14,443 nt of DNA from Dendronephthya gigantea (taxonomy: Eukaryota): positions 138,208-152,650 of the forward strand of contig NW_021163311.1 in NCBI RefSeq assembly GCF_004324835.1, given 5' to 3'. The position numbers and the translations under genes are program-made. Position 1 is the first letter of the stretch. Each line of letters begins with the position of its first letter. The notes under the pieces were generated by a model that was not told the origin of the DNA, did no database searches, and saw nothing but the letters and a program-made list of their open reading frames with translations. Shown here one piece after another: positions 771 through 14,443 of the stretch.

Positions 771-1080
771 CTGGTTTATAATGAAGATAAATGATTATGA
801 AATGCTGCTTTTTACATGTTTTAAATGCAATGGAAATTTGATCAGATATCCCCCAATGCTCGAGTTGTCTGACACAAAAGGTCTACATGTGTCTTGGGTA
901 AAGTTTGACAGATCTTTCTGCAAAGAGTTGGGTCAATTTTCGTTCCAACAACTAGCTTAAAATGAAGATAAATGGAATATGAAATGCAGTTTTTCACATG
1001 GTTTAAATGGAATGAAAAGTTTGATGAAATATCCCTGATACAAAAGACATGTTTCTTGGGTAAAGTTTGATGGATATTCT
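738..1080. repeat. Tandem duplication (about 180-bp segment, 1.9 copies) spanning start of exon 11 and most of the upstream intron
   Basis: Segment 738-918 realigns with 919-1080 (shared strings agagttgggtcaattttcgttccaaca, aatgaagataaatg, cttgggtaaagtttga). Confidence 0.75.
921..953 (-). pseudogene. Degenerate duplicated copy of the 5' part of eIF2gamma exon 11 ([12 protein letters not shown]) inside the exon10-exon11 intron
   Basis: gcaaagagttgggtcaattttcgttccaaca is repeated from 738-768; the acceptor is changed from ccag|GT to ctag|TT and there is no downstream donor or matching continuation. Confidence 0.6.
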
Positions 1081-1083
1081 TAC

Positions 1084-1228
1084 CAATTAGTCCACCAGGT
1101 ACGGCGTACTGAAGATCATTTTGTTCGGCGAACAACGAAACAATCACAGAACAGATTGGTTCCCAACGCAGTTTTCCTTTCTCATCTTTGGAAACAATGC
1201 CTGGACGTACTTCAATCTCTTGACCAAC
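1084..1228 (-). CDS. EIF2S3: eIF2 gamma exon 10: [48 protein letters not shown](G)
   Basis: Acceptor catttttag, donor GTAAGA; matches human [49 protein letters not shown]. Confidence 0.9.
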
Positions 1229-1463
1229 CTAAAATGTTGAATTAGAAATGAATGAAAAGTATAGACCTGCTTCAAATCAGACCTATTGCATCCTTTAAAG
1301 TTCTGGTAAGAGTAATATTTAGTAGAGCTTTGTAGGTGGAGCTATCAATTGTACGCATTTCCACAACAATGTAAACTTGGAGTAGCTGGGAAGATCTCAA
1401 AGAAGCTGGTTAATTCGACTTGTTTGTTATGGAATGGGGACAGCAAAAAGTGATCAACCATAC

Positions 1464-1558
1464 CTTTAAGACACCTTGGAGAATGCTTCCTCCAGCAACA
1501 CCTCCTTTAAGGTCTTGTACTTCGCATCCAGGCTTATTCACGTCAAAAGAACGGATCA
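1464..1558 (-). CDS. EIF2S3: eIF2 gamma exon 9: (V)[31 protein letters not shown]
   Basis: Acceptor tgatttcag, donor GTATGG; matches human [31 protein letters not shown]. Confidence 0.9.
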
Positions 1559-1698
1559 CTGAAATCAAGCAAGTATTTCAAGGTTTAAATTGTGAATAAT
1601 TCTTCAACCAAAGCAAGATACAGTTTCATTACACCATTCATTCAACTGCAAATGATTCTACAGTATTTGGTTATAGTCATGTTGGTCAGTCATCTCAC

Positions 1699-1833
1699 CA
1701 ATGAGCCTTGGTTGTGATGTGAAGTCTCGTCTTGGGATGGGTATTTTCTTGCAAATATATTCACAGATGACTTCAATGTTGTATTTCAACTGCGCCGAGA
1801 TTGGAACAACTGGAGCTCCTTCAGCAACTGTAC
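1699..1833 (-). CDS. EIF2S3: eIF2 gamma exon 8: (G)[44 protein letters not shown](V)
   Basis: Acceptor ccaaag, donor GTGAGA; matches human [45 protein letters not shown]. Confidence 0.9.
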
Positions 1834-1865
1834 CTTTGGTAAGGATAACACACAAAATTATATTT

Positions 1866-2078
1866 TGTTTCAAACTGTTCTTCTAGAGGTTTAGTGAGGA
1901 TAATCTCTTATTGATCCAGTGTTACTACAGGAGAAAACCTAAACTAAACTAACTTTATTTATACTGGATAACTCTATCAGTTCTAAACTGTTCTTCCTAG
2001 AGGTCCAGTAAGGATCATCTCTTATTGATCCAGTGTTACTGCAGGAGGAAACCTAAACAAACTAACTTTATTTATAAA
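1866..2078 (+). repeat. 114-bp satellite family, cluster 2 (about 1.9 units) filling eIF2gamma intron 7
   Basis: Same unit; intron is 1834-2098, so only 32 bp and 20 bp of unique sequence remain at acceptor and donor sides. Confidence 0.9.
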
Positions 2079-2098
2079 TGTAGGACAAAAGCAAATAC

Positions 2099-2257
2099 CT
2101 TCAACAAATTTCAGAATTTCTTTATACTGGTCCTTTGCTTGACTTTCTCGTACAAGATCAATTTTGTTTTGCAAGATGATAATATGTTCAAGTTTCATGA
2201 TCTCGATTGCTGCCAAATGTTCTGATGTCTGAGGTTGGGGGCACGATTCATTGCCAG
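2099..2257 (-). CDS. EIF2S3: eIF2 gamma exon 7: (A)[52 protein letters not shown](G); G4 NKID
   Basis: Acceptor ttattccag, donor GTATTT; 159 nt; matches human [53 protein letters not shown]. Confidence 0.9.
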
Positions 2258-2302
2258 CTGGAATAAAGATTGAAGAATACAGTTATGTACATGCCATAAA
2301 AC

Positions 2303-3597
2303 TGTCACTTGTCAACTCTCATGCAACTCTTGTTCTGGTTTGATCAAGCAATGATAGTTGATGAAACTCTCATGTAAACTCTCACTTGTCAACTCTCATG
2401 CAACTCTTGTTCTCGTTTGATCAAGCAATGATAGTTGATGAAACTCTCATGTAAACTCTCGCTTGTCAACTCTCATGCAACTCTTTTCTCGTTTGATCAA
2501 GCAATGATAGTTGATGAAACTCCCATGTAAACTCTCGCTTGTCAACTCTCATGCAAGTCTTGTTCTTATTTGATCAAGCAATGATAGTTGATGAAACTCT
2601 CATATAAACTCTCGCTTGTCAACTCTCATGCAACTCTTGTTCTCGTTTGATCAAGCAATGATACTTGATGAAACTCTCATGTAAACTCTCGCTTGTCAAC
2701 TCTCATGCAACTCTTGTTCTCGTTTGATCAAGCAATGATAGTTGATGAAACTCCATGTAAACTCTCGCTTGTCAACTCTCATGCAACTCTTGTTCTCGTT
2801 TGATCAAGCAATGATAGTTGATGAAACTCTCATGTAAACTCTCGCTTGTCAACTCTCATACAACTCTTGTTCTCGTTTGATCAAGCAATGATAGTTGATG
2901 AAACTCCCATGTAAACTCTCGCTTGTCAACTCTCATGCAACTCTTGTTCTCGTTTGATCAAGCAATGATAGTTGATGAAACTCCCATGTAAACTCTCGCT
3001 TGTCAACTCTCATGCAACTCTTGTTCTCGTTTGATCAAGCAATGATAGTTGATGAAACTCCCATGTAAACTCTCGCTTGTCAACTCTCATGCAACTCTTG
3101 TTCTCGTTTGATCAAGCAATGATAGTTGATGAAACTCTCATGTAAACTCTCACTTGTCAACTCTCATGCAACTCTTGTTCTCGTTTGATCAAGCAATGAT
3201 AGTTGATGAAACTCCCATGTAAACTCTCGCTTGTCAACTCTCATGCAACTCTTGTTCTCGTTTGATCAAGCAATGATAGTTGATGAAACTCTCATGTAAA
3301 CTCTCACTTGTCAACTCTCATGCAACTCTTGTTCTCGTTTGATCAAGCAATGATAGTTGATGAAACTCCCATGTAAACTCTCGCTTGTCAACTCTCATGC
3401 AACTCTTGTTCTCGTTTGATCAAGCAATGATAGTTGATGAAACTCTCATGTAAACTCTCGCTTGTCAACTCTCATGCAACTCTTGTTCTCGTTTGATCAA
3501 GCAATAATAGTTGATGAAACTCTCATGTAAACTCTCACTTATCAACTCTCATGCAACTCTTGTTCTCGTTTGATCAAGCAATGATAGTTGATGAAAC
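2303..3597. repeat. 77-bp satellite array, about 17 units, occupying nearly all of eIF2gamma intron 6 (2258-3639)
   Basis: Unit tgatcaagcaatgatagttgatgaaactctcatgtaaactctcgcttgtcaactctcatgcaactcttgttctcgtt; period 76-77 measured at 2341, 2418, 2494, 2571. Confidence 0.95.
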
Positions 3598-3639
3598 ATT
3601 TAACCCTCCCATTTTAACACATTGGAATGGAAATCTCAC

Positions 3640-3734
3640 CAATTAGCAACATTGCGGCGTCCATAACGGCTGCTCCGTTCAACATGGTTGCCATAAGAAT
3701 GTCGTGACCTGGGCAATCCACGAAAGAAACATGT
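3640..3734 (-). CDS. EIF2S3: eIF2 gamma exon 6: (R)[31 protein letters not shown](A); switch II DCPGH
   Basis: Acceptor tttattttgtag, donor GTGAGA; matches human [33 protein letters not shown]. Confidence 0.9.
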
Positions 3735-3840
3735 CTACAAAATAAACAATCATTTCTCTATGAATAGATTTTAGAAAGTGTTCTATCAAGATTTACAACG
3801 CACAAAAATTCATGGTTTGTAAGAGTTTATGTACACAAAC

Positions 3841-3962
3841 CTCACTAACTGCGATTTACCCTGGCAACCTGGTCTTTCACATGGTATGATGTCTTCGCGA
3901 GCGCTTCCTGCTGATCGATAACAGCTGGGCCTCTGACAACTGGGGTTGCTGCATTTGTAGAT
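3841..3962 (-). CDS. EIF2S3: eIF2 gamma exon 5: [40 protein letters not shown](R), Cys-rich zinc-ribbon segment
   Basis: Acceptor tttcttag; only donor giving phase compatibility with next exon is GTTTGT after ...GTGAG (122 nt, phase 2); aligns to human IYKLDDPSCPRPECYRS...GNFKLVR and Drosophila-type CxxxxC...CxxxxC. Confidence 0.7.
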
Positions 3963-4652
3963 CTAAGAAATATTTTTCTTGAAATATGGGGTAGATACTG
4001 TAGGCATTCTATTTTCTGCAATGAACTACATATATTCTTTGAAATATGCTACAGCAATGGGTAGGTAAGGAAAATTATCCAGAGTTTCTGATTTCTTTTG
4101 TCTGTCAGTGAAGAAATATTAAAATTGTATGGCTAATTCCAAGGCTAATTGTCGGTGGAGTAAATAAACTTTTGGGTAAAAATAAATAAGAAATGTTCGG
4201 AATAGAATTATCTTGTGTTAATCAAGGGCAAATCTAAACAAAAATCAGTCTAGTTGAGAGGCCTTGGGTTTGTTGCAAATGCACTAGACTTAAATATTAA
4301 GCTTAGTGGCTCTTGTTTTAGTTGATAGGTTCTTCTAATATTTTAGATCCATACATTCAAGACGAAATGTCAAGTCTATAACTATCAATATATGTAGTGA
4401 TCATTGTACAGTACGTGATTAATTAAAGGTCTGTTCACACAATACAAATTTATCAGATCCAATTCACTTCTGATGGATTTTTTATAATCTGTTGACTTGC
4501 AAAGTATACGGGCAGCAAATCAACTGAAGCCAATGCAGACTGTTTTATCAATAACAAACTATATTCCATACATCAGAAGTGAGTTGGACCCGACAAAGTT
4601 GTACAGTCTGAACAGGCCTTAATTTGTTTAAGTATTTATATAACCATAGTAC

Positions 4653-4718
4653 CTTTGCATTAGCATAGCCAAGCTTGATTGTGATATTTCGTTCAAGTTC
4701 GTTTTTAAATCGGACAGT
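4653..4718 (-). CDS. EIF2S3: eIF2 gamma exon 4: [22 protein letters not shown]
   Basis: Acceptor ttttccag, donor GTACTA; 22/22 identical to human eIF2gamma; phase 0/0. Confidence 0.9.
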
Positions 4719-5107
4719 CTGGAAAATAAACAAGCATATAGCAGGTTGTCGCAAAATTTGATGACAACATAAAATGCTGTTTATAATGTCTGAGATTTAT
4801 ATCTTTCAGAAGTCGCAGTTTTGACGGAAGATGAACTTTGCTACCAAGTTATTATGATAGCTCTCTATTCTAACTCAGGCAAAATGCCATGATAAAACTT
4901 GCTATCAAAGCTGTTTTCTACTTCAACCATATTGTAGCATAACGTAGCGTATTTCTTTGTTTCCGAAGTATTCGACCAGAACTAATGACTTTAAAACAAT
5001 GAGATATCCGAGGTTTTGCTACAATACAGTTGAAGTGGAAGACAATGTAAAACAACGCAAGCTTTGCAATGTCTGAGATTTCTTTCGAACAATCTTATAC
5101 ACAATAC

Positions 5108-5132
5108 CTGAACACCAGATAAAGCTTTTACA

Positions 5133-5169
<37 letters not shown>
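5108..5169 (-). CDS. EIF2S3: eIF2 gamma exon 3: (G)[20 protein letters not shown], G1/P-loop GHVAHGKST
   Basis: Acceptor ctag, donor GTATTG; near-identical to human [20 protein letters not shown]. Confidence 0.9.
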
Positions 5170-5172
<3 letters not shown>

Positions 5173-5349
5173 GAAATTAATGAAATTTACATTATTGAAA
5201 TATATTATTTCCTGCAATTGCATAAGCCTTCAGAGGCAAGATTACATCTTAAACCTGTTCATTGCAAATCCATGAAGACGTACATGGTGTAGAGAGTTGA
5301 AACTAAGTAATCATTTTAACTTTGTCATCATTGGTAGAGCAATACTAAC

Positions 5350-5450: not shown

Positions 5451-5610
5451 CATTAGCTTGCAATGCACCCAGATGTGGCCTACTTTAGTATTTTACTCTG
5501 TCTAATGTCAGATGATTTTACTCATCAGTGGAAGAGTACTGTCAGTTAATAAGTTAACAAAACTATCTGTCAGTGTCTCTTGTTAACCCATTAGCTTGCA
5601 ATGCACCCAG
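5451..5610 (+). repeat. 138-bp repeat family, copy A (about 1.15 units) in eIF2gamma intron 1
   Basis: Unit gttaacccattagcttgcaatgcacccagatgtg...actcatcagtggaagagtactgtcagttaataagttaacaaaactatctgtcagtgtctctt. Confidence 0.85.
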
Positions 5611-6119: not shown

Positions 6120-6478
6120 TCTGTAACTGGAGTGATCACGAGAGATGCACTGAGGGATAAACAACACTGGAGTGATAAAAGAGCACCCACTGAGAGACAA
6201 GTGTAACTGGAGTGATCACAGAAGATACACTGAGAGATAAGTATAACTGGAGTGATCACAGAAGACGCACTGAGAGATAAACATACTGGAGTGATAACAA
6301 AAGACGCCCTGAGAGATAAGCACAACTGGAGTGACTACAGAAGACGCACTGAGAGATAAGTATAACTGGAGTGACTACAGCCAGACGCACTGAGAGATAA
6401 TTATAACTGGAGTGATAAAGAAGACACACTGAGAGATAAAGCATTACTGGAGTGATCAAGTGTAAGCATTACTGAAAA
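6120..6478. repeat. 40-bp minisatellite (about 9 units), 140 bp upstream of the eIF2gamma start codon
   Basis: Unit actggagtgatcacagaagacgcactgagagataagtata; actgg recurs at 6126, 6166, 6206, 6246. Confidence 0.9.
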
Positions 6479-8650: not shown

Positions 8651-8690
8651 CTAGAAGTTTCAAATAGTTCGGATATTGTTACCAAATTTA

Positions 8691-9250
8691 GCTCCATCAG
8701 TTCTAAACTGTTCTTCCTAGAGGTCCAGTAAGGATCATCTCTTATTGATCCAGTGTTACTACAGGAGGAAACCTAAACTAAACTAACTTTATTTATACTG
8801 GATAGCTCTATAGTTCTAAACTGTTCTTTCTAGAGATCCAGTAAGGATCATCTCTTATTGACCCAGTGTTGCTACAGGAGGAAACCTAAACTAAACTAAC
8901 TTTATTTATACTGGATAGCTCTATCAGTTCTAAACTGTTCTTCCTAGAGGTCCAGGAGGGATCATCTCTTATTGATCCAGTGTTACTACAGGAGGAAACC
9001 TAAACTAAACTAACTTTATTTATACTGGATAGCTCTATCAGTTCTAAACTGTTCTTCCTAGAGGTCCAGTAAGGATCATCTCTTATTGATCCAGTGTTAC
9101 TACAGGAGGAAACCTAAACTAAACTAACTTTATTTATACTGGATAACTCTATCAGTTCTGAACTGTTCCTCCTAGAGGTCCAGTAAGGATCATCTCTTAT
9201 TGATCCAGTGTTACTACAGGAGGAAACCTAAACTATATTTATATTGGATG
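8691..9250 (+). repeat. 114-bp satellite family, cluster 3 (about 4.9 units) in last intron of the signal-peptide gene
   Basis: Five tandem units with minor variants (113-114 bp). Confidence 0.9.
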
Positions 9251-9270
9251 AACAAGATACAATAACATAC

Positions 9271-9385
9271 TTTTTCCACAGTATCTGGACAACTCAGCTT
9301 TTTTAATGTTTGATTCCTCGAACTTAACCGCAGCAATTGTTCGTCTGAATTCTTTGCCATTCACATCCATATGAATTGTCAGCAC
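9271..9385 (-). CDS. Signal-peptide gene exon 4: VLTIHMDVNGKEFRRTIAAVKFEESNIKKAELSRYCGK
   Basis: Acceptor ctactcag, donor GTATGT; open frame, phase 0 in / 1 out, consistent with exon 3. Confidence 0.6.
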
Positions 9386-9464
9386 CTGAGTAGATTAGAT
9401 TGATTTTTAAAGCTATTAAAGTGTTTAATATCCTTATGCATTCAACAGGACTCTTGATTCTTAA

Positions 9465-9885
9465 GCCCTGGTCAAACGAGAATGATAGTTGATGAGAGTT
9501 GAGAAGCGAGAGTTTGCACGAGAGTTTTCCAAACTCTCGATGCGCCGGTCAAACGAGAATGAGAGTTGAGAACGAGAGTTGATTACGGCGCGCATTAATT
9601 TCGTCCTTACTCCACTTCGTTTTGCTTTTTTTGTTTCTGCCCGTTGTTTTCAGAAGATTTCTTTTTTTTTTCAAAAAAATTGCAAACCGCTAGCTGTTTT
9701 GCAACTCTCATCAACTCTCATGACCGATCAAACGCGCCCAAACTCTCATCAACTCTCATCAAAATTTGAACCAGTTCAAAGTCAATGAGAGTTGATGAGA
9801 GTGCACGAGAGTGTATGAGAGTTCGCGGTCAAACGCAAGCGAGAGTTGCAACTCTCATCAACTCTCATTCTCGTTTGACCAGGGC
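9465..9885. mobile_element. MITE (421 bp) with about 40-bp TIR GCCCTGGTCAAACGAGAATGA.AGTTGATGAGAGTTG, flanked by TTAA on both sides (9461-9464 and 9886-9889); lies in intron 3 of signal-peptide gene
   Basis: Left cTTAAgccctggtcaaacgagaatgatagttgatgagagttg; right caactctcatcaactctcattctcgtttgaccagggcTTAAa; internal ctctcatcaactctcat subrepeats; TTAA duplication is piggyBac-like. Confidence 0.8.
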
Positions 9886-9911
9886 TTAAAGGTTTCATCC
9901 ATAAAAATTAC

Positions 9912-10057
9912 CTGAACATCGACTTGTTCAACTCGCTTTTCATTAATGAATTGCACTTGTTCTTCGATCAAATATTGATGTCCCGATTCCAGCTCCTTTC
10001 TCATCACCATTACGTGAATTATGACAGGAAGAATGCGAACATCTTTGGCAGAGTAAA
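9912..10057 (-). CDS. Signal-peptide gene exon 3: (V)YSAKDVRILPVIIHVMVMRKELESGHQYLIEEQVQFINEKRVEQVDVQ
   Basis: Acceptor tttcacag, donor GTAATT; phase 1 in / 0 out. Confidence 0.6.
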
Positions 10058-10276: not shown

Positions 10277-10352
10277 GGTCCTCCGGCAGAAATCGAACCT
10301 ATGCTTTTGCGATGCCGGTGCAATGCTCTTGCCACTGAGCTACAGAGGTAGC
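10277..10352 (-). ncRNA. tRNA-like Pol III element (degenerate tRNA or SINE head) with A box TAGCTCAGTGG and B box GGTTCGATT
   Basis: Minus strand acctctgtaGCTCagtggcaaGAGCattgcaccggcatcgcaaaagcataGGTTCGATTtctgccggaggacc; resembles tRNA-Ala but acceptor and T stems do not pair. Confidence 0.45.
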
Positions 10353-10896: not shown

Positions 10897-11140
10897 TAGG
10901 TCACATCTGGGTGCATTGCAAGCTAATGGGTTAACAAGAGACACTGACAGATAGTTTTGTTAACTTATTAACTGACAGTACTCTTCCACTGATGAGTAAA
11001 ATCATCTGGCATTAGACAGAGTAAAATACTAAAGTAGATCACATCTGGGTGCATTGCAAGCTAATGGTTATCACAGATAGTTTTGTTTACTTGGTAATGA
11101 CAATGATCAAGTGGTGAGTAAAATCATCTGGCTGATGGAA
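10897..11140 (-). repeat. 138-bp repeat family, copy B (reverse orientation, about 1.7 units) in intron 1 of the signal-peptide gene
   Basis: Reverse complement of the unit: aggtcacatctgggtgcattgcaagctaatgggttaacaagagacactgacag... Confidence 0.85.
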
Positions 11141-13056: not shown

Positions 13057-13223
13057 ATGGCTCATCTTCGAAGACTCGCATCGCTTTCCACGAGAAGATC
13101 TTTGAGGAAATCCTTGTCAAGTTACTTGTATTCGTCTTCGACAAAACTTCAAAACAACGTCGCTTTATGTGGTACCACTTATCGTCATGTTAGTTCGAGT
13201 GGAGCAAAATTACAGCCGGACAC
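13057..13223 (+). CDS. FDX1: Ferredoxin exon 1: MAHLRRLASLSTRRSLRKSLSSYLYSSSTKLQNNVALCGTTYRHVSSSGAKLQPD(T), Arg/Ser-rich mitochondrial presequence
   Basis: ATG 13057; donor AC|GTAAGT (phase 2); presequence-like composition. Confidence 0.65.
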
Positions 13224-13410
13224 GTAAGTCGATGAAAATGTATATTTAATTATGTATATATTTCACGTTTTAGTGTTTACTCGAAGTCATATGGCGATTG
13301 AGTGATTAATTAAAACGAATTCCCGTTTTTATGTAATTCTTCAATGTTCACTTGGCTATATTTTGCTAAAAAAAACGACACCAACAATAATTTTACTCAT
13401 GGGAAGAGTT

Positions 13411-13720
13411 GTTAACCCATTAGCTTGCAATGCACCCAGATGTGACCTATTTAAGTATTTTACTCTGTCTAATGTCAGATGATTTTACTCATCAGTGGAA
13501 GAATACTGTCAGTTAATAAGTTAACAAAACTATCTGTCAGTGTCTCTTGTTAACCCATTAGCTTGCAATGCACCCAGATGTGACCTATTTAAGTATTTTA
13601 CTCTGTCTAATGTCAGATGATTTTACTCATCAGTGGAAGAGTACTGTCAGTTAATAAGTTAACAAAACTATCTGTCAGTGTCTCTTGTTAACCCATTAGC
13701 TTGCAATGCACCCAGATGTG
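13411..13720 (+). repeat. 138-bp repeat family, copy C (2.25 tandem units) in ferredoxin intron 1
   Basis: gttaaccc recurs at 13411, 13549, 13687 (period 138). Confidence 0.9.
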
Positions 13721-13829
13721 TTTTTTTAGTTTTCAAATAATTTAGGAGGATATTGCCTCCTTTTGACTGGCCAACCAGTGACTGGCACCGGATTTCACGG
13801 CTTCAAAGGTTTGTTTGTTTCTTCTCCAG

Positions 13830-13936
13830 AGCATCAATCACATTTCACGATCGAGATGGCGACAAGAAAACAGTTTCAGCCAAATATGGAGATTCACTTC
13901 TTGATGTTGCAAAGAATAATGATATTGATTTGGAAG
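13830..13936 (+). CDS. FDX1: Ferredoxin exon 2: (T)ASITFHDRDGDKKTVSAKYGDSLLDVAKNNDIDLE(G)
   Basis: Acceptor ttcttctccag, donor G|GTAAGA; matches adrenodoxin [36 protein letters not shown]. Confidence 0.85.
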
Positions 13937-14021
13937 GTAAGAATGACTACACTGCTCTCTTTTAGCCATGAGTTTATTAACACGTTTTGAATATCTTCTC
14001 TTCATCAAATTTCACATCGAG

Positions 14022-14157: not shown

Positions 14158-14159
14158 GT

Positions 14160-14443
14160 AAGAGATGATCCTTACTGGACCTCTAGGAAGAACAGTTTAG
14201 AACTGATAGAACTATCCAGTATAAATAAAGTTAGTTTAGTTTAGGTTTCCTCCTGTAGTAACATTGGATCAATAAGAGATGATCCTTACTGGAACTCTAG
14301 GAAGAACAGTTAAGAACTGATAGAGTTATCCAGTATAAATAAAGTTAGTTTAGTTTAGTTTCCTCCTGTAGTAACACTGGATCAATAAGAGAAGATCCTT
14401 ACTGGACCTCTAGGAAGAACAGTTTAGAATGATAAGAGCTATC
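14160..14443 (-). repeat. 114-bp satellite family, cluster 4 (reverse-complement orientation, 2.5 units or more, truncated by window end) starting 2 bp after ferredoxin exon 3 donor
   Basis: Plus strand reads agagatgatccttactggacctctaggaagaacagtttagaactgatag..., the reverse complement of the unit. Confidence 0.9.

Follow-up and report, generated by a model that had tools for sequence, protein, structure and literature searches.

The third intron of LOC114541665, a gene of the octocoral Dendronephthya gigantea, consists for the most part of one compact segment bounded by inverted repeats, and a 77-bp satellite lies within the same window (the whole stretch of DNA analysed, 14,443 nt). This raises the questions of what the segment is, whether it was inserted into the intron, by what kind of enzyme it may have been moved, and whether the satellite descends from it. 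Taken together, the evidence makes it very likely that 9465-9885 is a non-autonomous cut-and-paste MITE that inserts at TTAA and duplicates it, that its insertion here is lineage-specific, and that the end module of its family has been amplified to satellites.

The setting of the element is well defined. A four-exon model of the host gene, drawn from its splice sites, matches the NCBI protein P0001 (277 aa) at 100% identity and 100% query coverage. On the minus strand, exon 3 ((V)YSAKDV...VEQVDVQ, 9912-10057) and exon 4 (VLTIHMDV...SRYCGK, 9271-9385) enclose intron 3 (9386-9911; 526 nt, GT...AG, phase 0), with the GT at 9911-9910, the AG at 9387-9386 and the frame continuing as ...EQVDVQ-VLTIHMDV.... 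The element takes up 421 of the 526 nt (80%), lying 26 nt from the donor (22 nt leaving out the TTAA) and, TTAAs counted, 79 nt from the acceptor; both splice sites and the NCBI match thus agree with the earlier note, which had placed it 26 bp from a donor and given it 80 percent of intron 3 (9386-9911) of a signal-peptide gene. The folding energy predicted for the intron 3 RNA is -196.6 kcal/mol against a shuffled mean of -125 (z = -12.4), with the TIRs paired, and in the pre-mRNA the TIRs would pair, the element would loop out and the intron would be spliced as usual. Given that the annotated protein and three orthologues, 63-70% identical, read straight across the exon 3-4 junction, splicing of intron 3 is presumably normal. 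Pfam matched nothing on the host-gene exons, and exact-protein look-ups of P0001 and of the ORF running from exon 3 through the intron into the TIR returned no record. Intron 2 of the same gene holds, on the gene's strand, a tRNA-Ala with anticodon GGC (ARAGORN; 10277-10349, minus strand) that scores 36.1 bits with the Rfam tRNA model against a 29-bit threshold and could be either a functional tRNA gene or a tRNA-derived repeat. Two further genes of the window were recognised by eye from ORF translations: about 1000-5200 (minus strand) we take to be an eIF2-gamma-like gene, and 13057-14000 (plus strand) presumably encodes a mitochondrial ferredoxin of the adrenodoxin type.

The element itself is 421 bp long, is bounded by TIRs and is flanked by TTAA at 9461-9464 and 9886-9889, the two copies of the inferred 4-bp target-site duplication (TSD), as had been described from the sequence beforehand. 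A repeat search of the window returned inverted-repeat arms at 9461-9501 and 9849-9889 (41 nt, 98% complementarity, TTAAs included). Leaving out the TTAAs, the left TIR (GCCCTGGTCAAACGAGAATGATAGTTGATGAGAGTTG, 9465-9501, plus strand) and the right TIR (9849-9885, minus strand) are 37 nt long and match at 36/37 positions, the similarity ending at nt 38, and the 40-bp TIRs first proposed are shortened to that extent. The left TIR and the subterminal region that follows it form a 77-bp left-end module (9465-9541, plus strand), delimited by a 77-bp direct-repeat spacing and homologous to satellites of 77-88 bp. A partial second module (9542-9582, plus strand) opens with an inner TIR-like site, GCGCCGGTCAAACGAGAATGAGAGTTGA, at 89% to the terminus, and the module is therefore already present 1.5 times within the element. 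The window contains the 21-nt terminus 3 times, against 0.00 occurrences expected over 200 shuffles, and the third copy is internal, in direct orientation, at 9542, which is exactly 77 bp from the left end. A spacer with T/A runs (9583-9700, plus strand) is specific to this copy, being unmatched elsewhere among the compared loci, and separates the modules from the internal right half (9701-9848, plus strand), in which arrays of the motifs CAACTCTCAT / ATGAGAGT(T/G) are set in opposite orientations around the palindrome TTTGAAC-CA-GTTCAAA (9765-9780), and in which an inner GGTCAAACG site is also found. The internal 10-bp subrepeats CAACTCTCAT / ATGAGAGTTG are present as the earlier note had it, and the heptamer GAGAGTT/AACTCTC occurs 15 times in the 421-bp element, 42 times in the 77-bp satellite and 2 times in the other 12.7 kb.

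The element has no coding capacity, its longest ORF being 72 aa. Six-frame protein queries with the element matched no genuine protein family, the sequences returned being translated satellite arrays and one further copy, Rfam matched no RNA family over it, and an exact-protein look-up of its 69-aa ORF gave no record. It combines small size, TIRs, a flanking TSD and lack of coding capacity with a filled and an empty site, as a MITE does. Such an element would be mobilised in trans by a TTAA-targeting transposase recognising the 37-nt TIRs, and the same putative enzyme would also bind the many GAGAGTTG / GGTCAAACG motifs of which the element largely consists.

The empty site is provided by P0005, an ORF on a Tara scaffold (L008) and a Logan contig (L009) that spans the junction of exons 3 and 4 by reading through a short intron. 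Over >3 kb, L008 and the window are colinear, with 76-83% identity, and this colinearity identifies L008/L009 as the orthologous locus of a related octocoral. Intron 3 is there about 92 bp long and free of the element. The window's intron without the element and one TTAA is 101 nt long and aligns to the L008 intron with no extra gaps, TTCA standing in place of TTAA. The sequence comparison, which is one between species and not within a species, shows that the element was inserted after the D. gigantea lineage had split from the related octocoral with the empty intron. The earlier note had suggested looking for an empty site in other individuals or species, and one is thus at hand; given that it reads TTCA, it proves the absence of the element and not the exact target sequence.

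The 14.4-kb window holds one TIR-bounded copy; three further independent insertion sites come from other assemblies and metagenomes. A degenerate core pattern search recovered elements 70-75% identical over their whole length on three Ga0126336 metagenome contigs from one sample, which share the same flanks and were therefore counted as one insertion site. Their ends read TTAA-GCCGGGCC...CCCCGGC-TTAA (the hyphen here and below marking the element boundary), in the layout TTAA-GCCGGGCCAAACGAG...TTGGCCCCGGC-TTAA, and an inner TIR-like site lies about 90 bp in from the left end; they carry only about 1.3 modules and no array. Other loci, among them L010, L011 and L015, were recovered from other assemblies with six-frame "protein" baits. 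L010 reads TAAA-GCCCCGG... at one end and ...CCAGGGC-TTAA at the other, both ends of L011 have decayed, and L015 keeps the left end TTAA-GATCTGG... and has lost the right. On one of the Ga0126336 contigs, L001 (888-1630), two related elements stand in direct tandem with a single shared TTAA (TTAA-E1-TTAA-E2-TTAA), an arrangement that fits either a second insertion into the flanking TTAA of the first element or unequal exchange, and the paralogous or allelic contig L002 carries a single, longer element at the same site. Among the candidates that were set aside, metagenome matches L003-L006 are chance matches, and a scan of bacterial and archaeal genomes with the 18-nt terminus gave noise (18 matches against about 17 expected, none extending beyond 18-22 nt); a scan of viral contigs with the shared core gave 0 matches.

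When the ends are aligned from outside to inside (alignment A1), TTAA-G is found at 6/7 intact ends from four independent sites, the exception being the TAAA of L010; in the window, TTAA covers 0.8% of positions, and 31.5% of the bases are T. The earlier note had named other copies with different ends or a different TSD as the finding that would speak against its boundaries, and the copies compared here show neither. The best-supported reading of these sequences is a 4-bp TTAA duplication, which is favoured because the TA and 3-bp readings are improbable at independent ends and because TTAA-G is symmetric. Beyond the ends, the right half and its palindrome are conserved among the window, L015, L011, L002 and L001 (alignment A2), and given that this half is not part of the satellite, its conservation indicates a genuine element family and not a rearranged piece of satellite.

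The satellite of the window lies at 2299-3597 in the region of the eIF2-gamma-like gene, with 16.9 copies of a 77-bp unit at 97% internal identity. It reads in the orientation of the element's left module on the minus strand and is 'naked', without element termini; a remnant of the right half, sought beside the array, is absent. Its reverse complement aligns to 9468-9582, that is, to the left TIR, the subterminal region and the start of the second module, which identifies the satellite unit as the left-end module and not as the internal CAACTCTCAT subrepeats. The earlier note had the satellite amplify an internal subrepeat motif; the GAGAGTT heptamer is shared by both, and the unit is the 77-bp left-end module and not the ctctcatcaactctcat subrepeats. 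By its sequence the window satellite belongs to the family of the left-end module. Its identity reaches 96% with the L012 unit and 87-90% with the L011 unit, against only 79-82% with the element's own 77-bp module, and it probably derives from a sister subfamily and not from the copy at 9465-9885; the suggestion that this very element was the progenitor of the satellite is hence given up, while the homology at the level of the family stands.

In other copies the left-end module has been amplified from the element terminus to between 4 and 37 units, with periods of 77, 87 and 88 bp. The arrays comprise 37 units of 88 bp at L010, about 2.8 kb of 77/87-bp units at L011, 26 units of 77 bp at L012, 6 and 10 units of 87 bp at L013 (L014 being the same locus in another sample) and about 4 units at L015. 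Those of L010, L011 and L015 begin at an element terminus, and in L011 and L015 the conserved right half is preserved as well, which indicates that arrays grow inside elements. The remaining 4/7 arrays (the window satellite, L012 and L013/L014) have neither element termini nor a right-half remnant, and their edges fall in arbitrary phase; the direction from MITE to satellite is therefore shown for some arrays and is presumed for that of the window. Unequal exchange between the terminal and the inner TIR-like sites, or replication slippage between them, would produce the arrays, and the naked ones would have lost their ends or been dispersed by other means.

Several side observations concern these arrays. 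The 77-bp array of L012 (10205-12250) starts about 10 bp past the splice donor of an exon of a histone-fold gene (...aacgacag-gtgagggcatg-TAACGAGAAC..., hyphens setting off the exon end and the array start), and together with the window element it places family members in the immediate vicinity of the splice donors of two unrelated genes. The arrays are open in one frame and have entered a public protein collection as 'proteins' of 750-1100 aa that match Pfam faintly, P0006-P0010 (L010 10001-13327, L011 9408-12551, L012 10001-12247, L013 9525-12416 and L014 10001-12754). In one of them, P0008, the array is fused to an exon that does encode a histone fold (NC2/DR1-like). These array-derived 'proteins' are annotation artefacts.

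Other repeats share the window with the element. A second dispersed tandem-repeat family, with a 114-bp unit and 93-96% internal identity, is found at 8689-9235 (plus strand) and, inverted, at 14159-14443, with fragments at about 247-474 and 1868-2074; it recurs at L008 3280-3594, L010 3784-4498 and L012 14281-15446, and it lies in intron 4 of the host gene both in D. gigantea and at the orthologous L008 locus. Given that the inverted copy lies 5 kb off at the window's end, two inverted arrays bracket the host gene. A 138-bp tandem repeat at 13409-13720 (2.3 copies, 99%) contains TTAACCCATTAGCTTGCAATGCACC, and a core of about 48 nt, CTATCTGTCAGTGTCTCTTGTTAACCCATTAGC...CCCAG, is identical at three loci (13409-13720; 5563-5610, plus strand; 10910-10954, minus strand). 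This repeat (TTAACCCATTAGC...) was considered as a canonical piggyBac MITE and rejected, since the block shared between loci crosses the TTAA and so gives no ground for taking TTAA-CCC as its terminus. About 8 copies of a 40/80-bp tandem repeat, at 79-83%, follow the last exon of the host gene on its downstream side, at 6124-6456.

To which superfamily the element belongs is a more delicate matter. The earlier note had called it 'piggyBac-like', a label that rests on TTAA, which Kolobok shares, and the CC[C/T]T of piggyBac is not at its terminus. A transposase ORF, sought in about 130 kb of related loci, and an autonomous element, sought with six-frame baits, were not found, and for this reason the mobilising enzyme and the superfamily can only be approached indirectly. 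A piggyBac-superfamily MITE, mobilised by a piggyBac-like transposase cutting at TTAA, is a serious if tentative candidate. TTAA stands on both sides of the window element and at the other copies, CCCT lies one base inward from the end of the D. gigantea-type copies, and piggyBac-like transposons as well as array-forming TTAA MITEs are documented in stony corals (PMC2872659). Nevertheless, piggyBac TIRs are 12-19 bp long and begin with CC[C/T]T, a motif reported to be necessary for transposition (PMC2872659), whereas the TIRs here are 37 nt and a G intervenes between the TTAA and the motif. The ends within the family are G-CCCT in the window and L010, G-CCGG in L002 (GCCGGG) and G-ATCT in L015 (GATCTGG), the motif being missing in the Ga0126336 and L015 relatives. 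A dense subterminal repeat architecture is not known as the layout of piggyBac elements, which likewise counts against this assignment. Finally, the same TTAA target is used by Kolobok (PMC9587614), and no transposase was linked to the element.

Assignment to Kolobok, which would make the element a MITE like the Xenopus T2-MITE Xmix with its amplified internal tandem repeat Xstir, is rather unlikely. Kolobok is TTAA-specific and present in cnidarians (PMC9587614), and Xmix/Xstir offers the precedent of a TTAA MITE with an internal segment that has turned into a family of tandem repeats (PMC6004289). However, Kolobok termini are of the form 5'-RR...YY-3' (PMC9587614), with AG in Xenopus (PMC6004289), whereas the window, L010 and L002 have GC...GC and only the decayed L015 starts with GA; in addition, no THAP/DDE transposase was found. 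Given that the family has the TTAA duplication of both superfamilies, at 6/7 intact ends and four independent sites, and the terminus of neither, it is provisionally filed under neither piggyBac nor Kolobok on the sequence of its ends.

The GC...GC termini, the long TIRs and the dense subterminal sites raise the further possibility that the family represents a TTAA-targeting lineage distinct from both canonical piggyBac and canonical Kolobok, and, given that the arrays are strings of complete TIR-bearing end modules, that the transposase might mobilise segments of the arrays as such. This combined proposal is speculative and has little probability; if true, mobilisation of arrays would account for the presence of one and the same 77-bp satellite (96% identical) near splice sites in the introns of unrelated genes.

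It could also be argued that the direction was the reverse, or that nothing moved at all: the satellite would be older and the 'MITE' an inverted arrangement of its monomers or an element assembled from them de novo. A TIR-like site is present in every satellite monomer, this small sample holds more naked than TIR-bounded arrays, and for corals it has been proposed that TTAA elements can be assembled de novo (CMITE-IN, PMC2872659). This is nevertheless improbable, given the precise boundaries, the empty orthologous site, the TTAA flanks recurring at independent sites and the conservation of the non-satellite right half. Furthermore, the relatives that have diverged furthest (Ga0126336, 70-75%) retain the whole architecture while having only about 1.3 modules and no array, and the period varies by locus (77, 87, 88 bp), as is expected of repeated secondary expansions. 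The least credible alternative is that the true duplication is shorter, being either TA with element ends A-GCCC...GGGC-T (Tc1/mariner, Stowaway-like) or TTA/TAA (PIF/Harbinger, Tourist-like), with the full TTAA partly element sequence or coincidence: the window's single copy with TTAA on both sides fits all three registers, and the empty site has no power on TSD length because removing TTAA, TA or TTA/TAA yields an identical sequence, but the positions outside a TA are T/A in 6/6 intact TTAA ends (the outer base being T in 6/6, chance about 0.001), the fourth base outside a 3-bp duplication matches TTAA in 3/3 ends (chance about 0.03, a small sample), and a 3-bp duplication needs asymmetric termini whereas both ends read TTAA-G symmetrically, as a palindromic 4-bp duplication predicts.

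The preferred reading therefore remains that of a MITE which duplicates TTAA on insertion and whose family seeds satellites. It leaves the current understanding of transposons and of splicing unchallenged. What it adds is an octocoral example of the route from MITE to satellite, in which the amplified unit includes the putative transposase-binding terminus, and a case in which a TTAA duplication by itself is insufficient for the label piggyBac. The element is usable as a presence/absence marker for nephtheid soft corals, and the arrays of its family are a source of long spurious "proteins" (P0006-P0010) in public collections.

The seeding of satellites by a MITE has precedents in frogs, stony corals and other animals. 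The tandem-repeat MITEs and MITE-derived satellites of bivalves and Drosophila (for example pearl, DTC84, SGM/PERI) follow the same general principle, a MITE with a few internal repeats seeding long satellite arrays; their superfamilies, TSDs and hosts differ from those of the D. gigantea element. The CMITEs of Acropora, which are of piggyBac type, are likewise TTAA-flanked intronic MITEs of a cnidarian with a conserved internal region and tandem arrays, and their past mobility is likewise shown by pairs of filled and empty sites (PMC2872659). Compared by description, however, CMITEs are about 100 bp long with 13-14-bp TIRs starting CCCTTT/CCCC and are arrayed as whole elements (PMC2872659), whereas the D. 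gigantea element is 421 bp long, its 37-nt TIRs start with GCCC, and the arrays of its family consist of the 77-bp end module only. Xmix/Xstir of Xenopus, a T2-MITE assigned to Kolobok, is alike in being a TTAA-specific MITE: an internal segment of it has been amplified in tandem, and the resulting repeat family is carried genome-wide by the element (PMC6004289, with the papers by Hikosaka & Kawahara cited there). There is no sequence similarity between Xmix and the D. gigantea element, and the hosts are a frog and an octocoral. Xmix ends in AGGRR, with the RR signature of Kolobok, and its amplified unit is a purely internal segment, whereas the element described here ends in GCCC and the unit amplified in its family includes the TIR.
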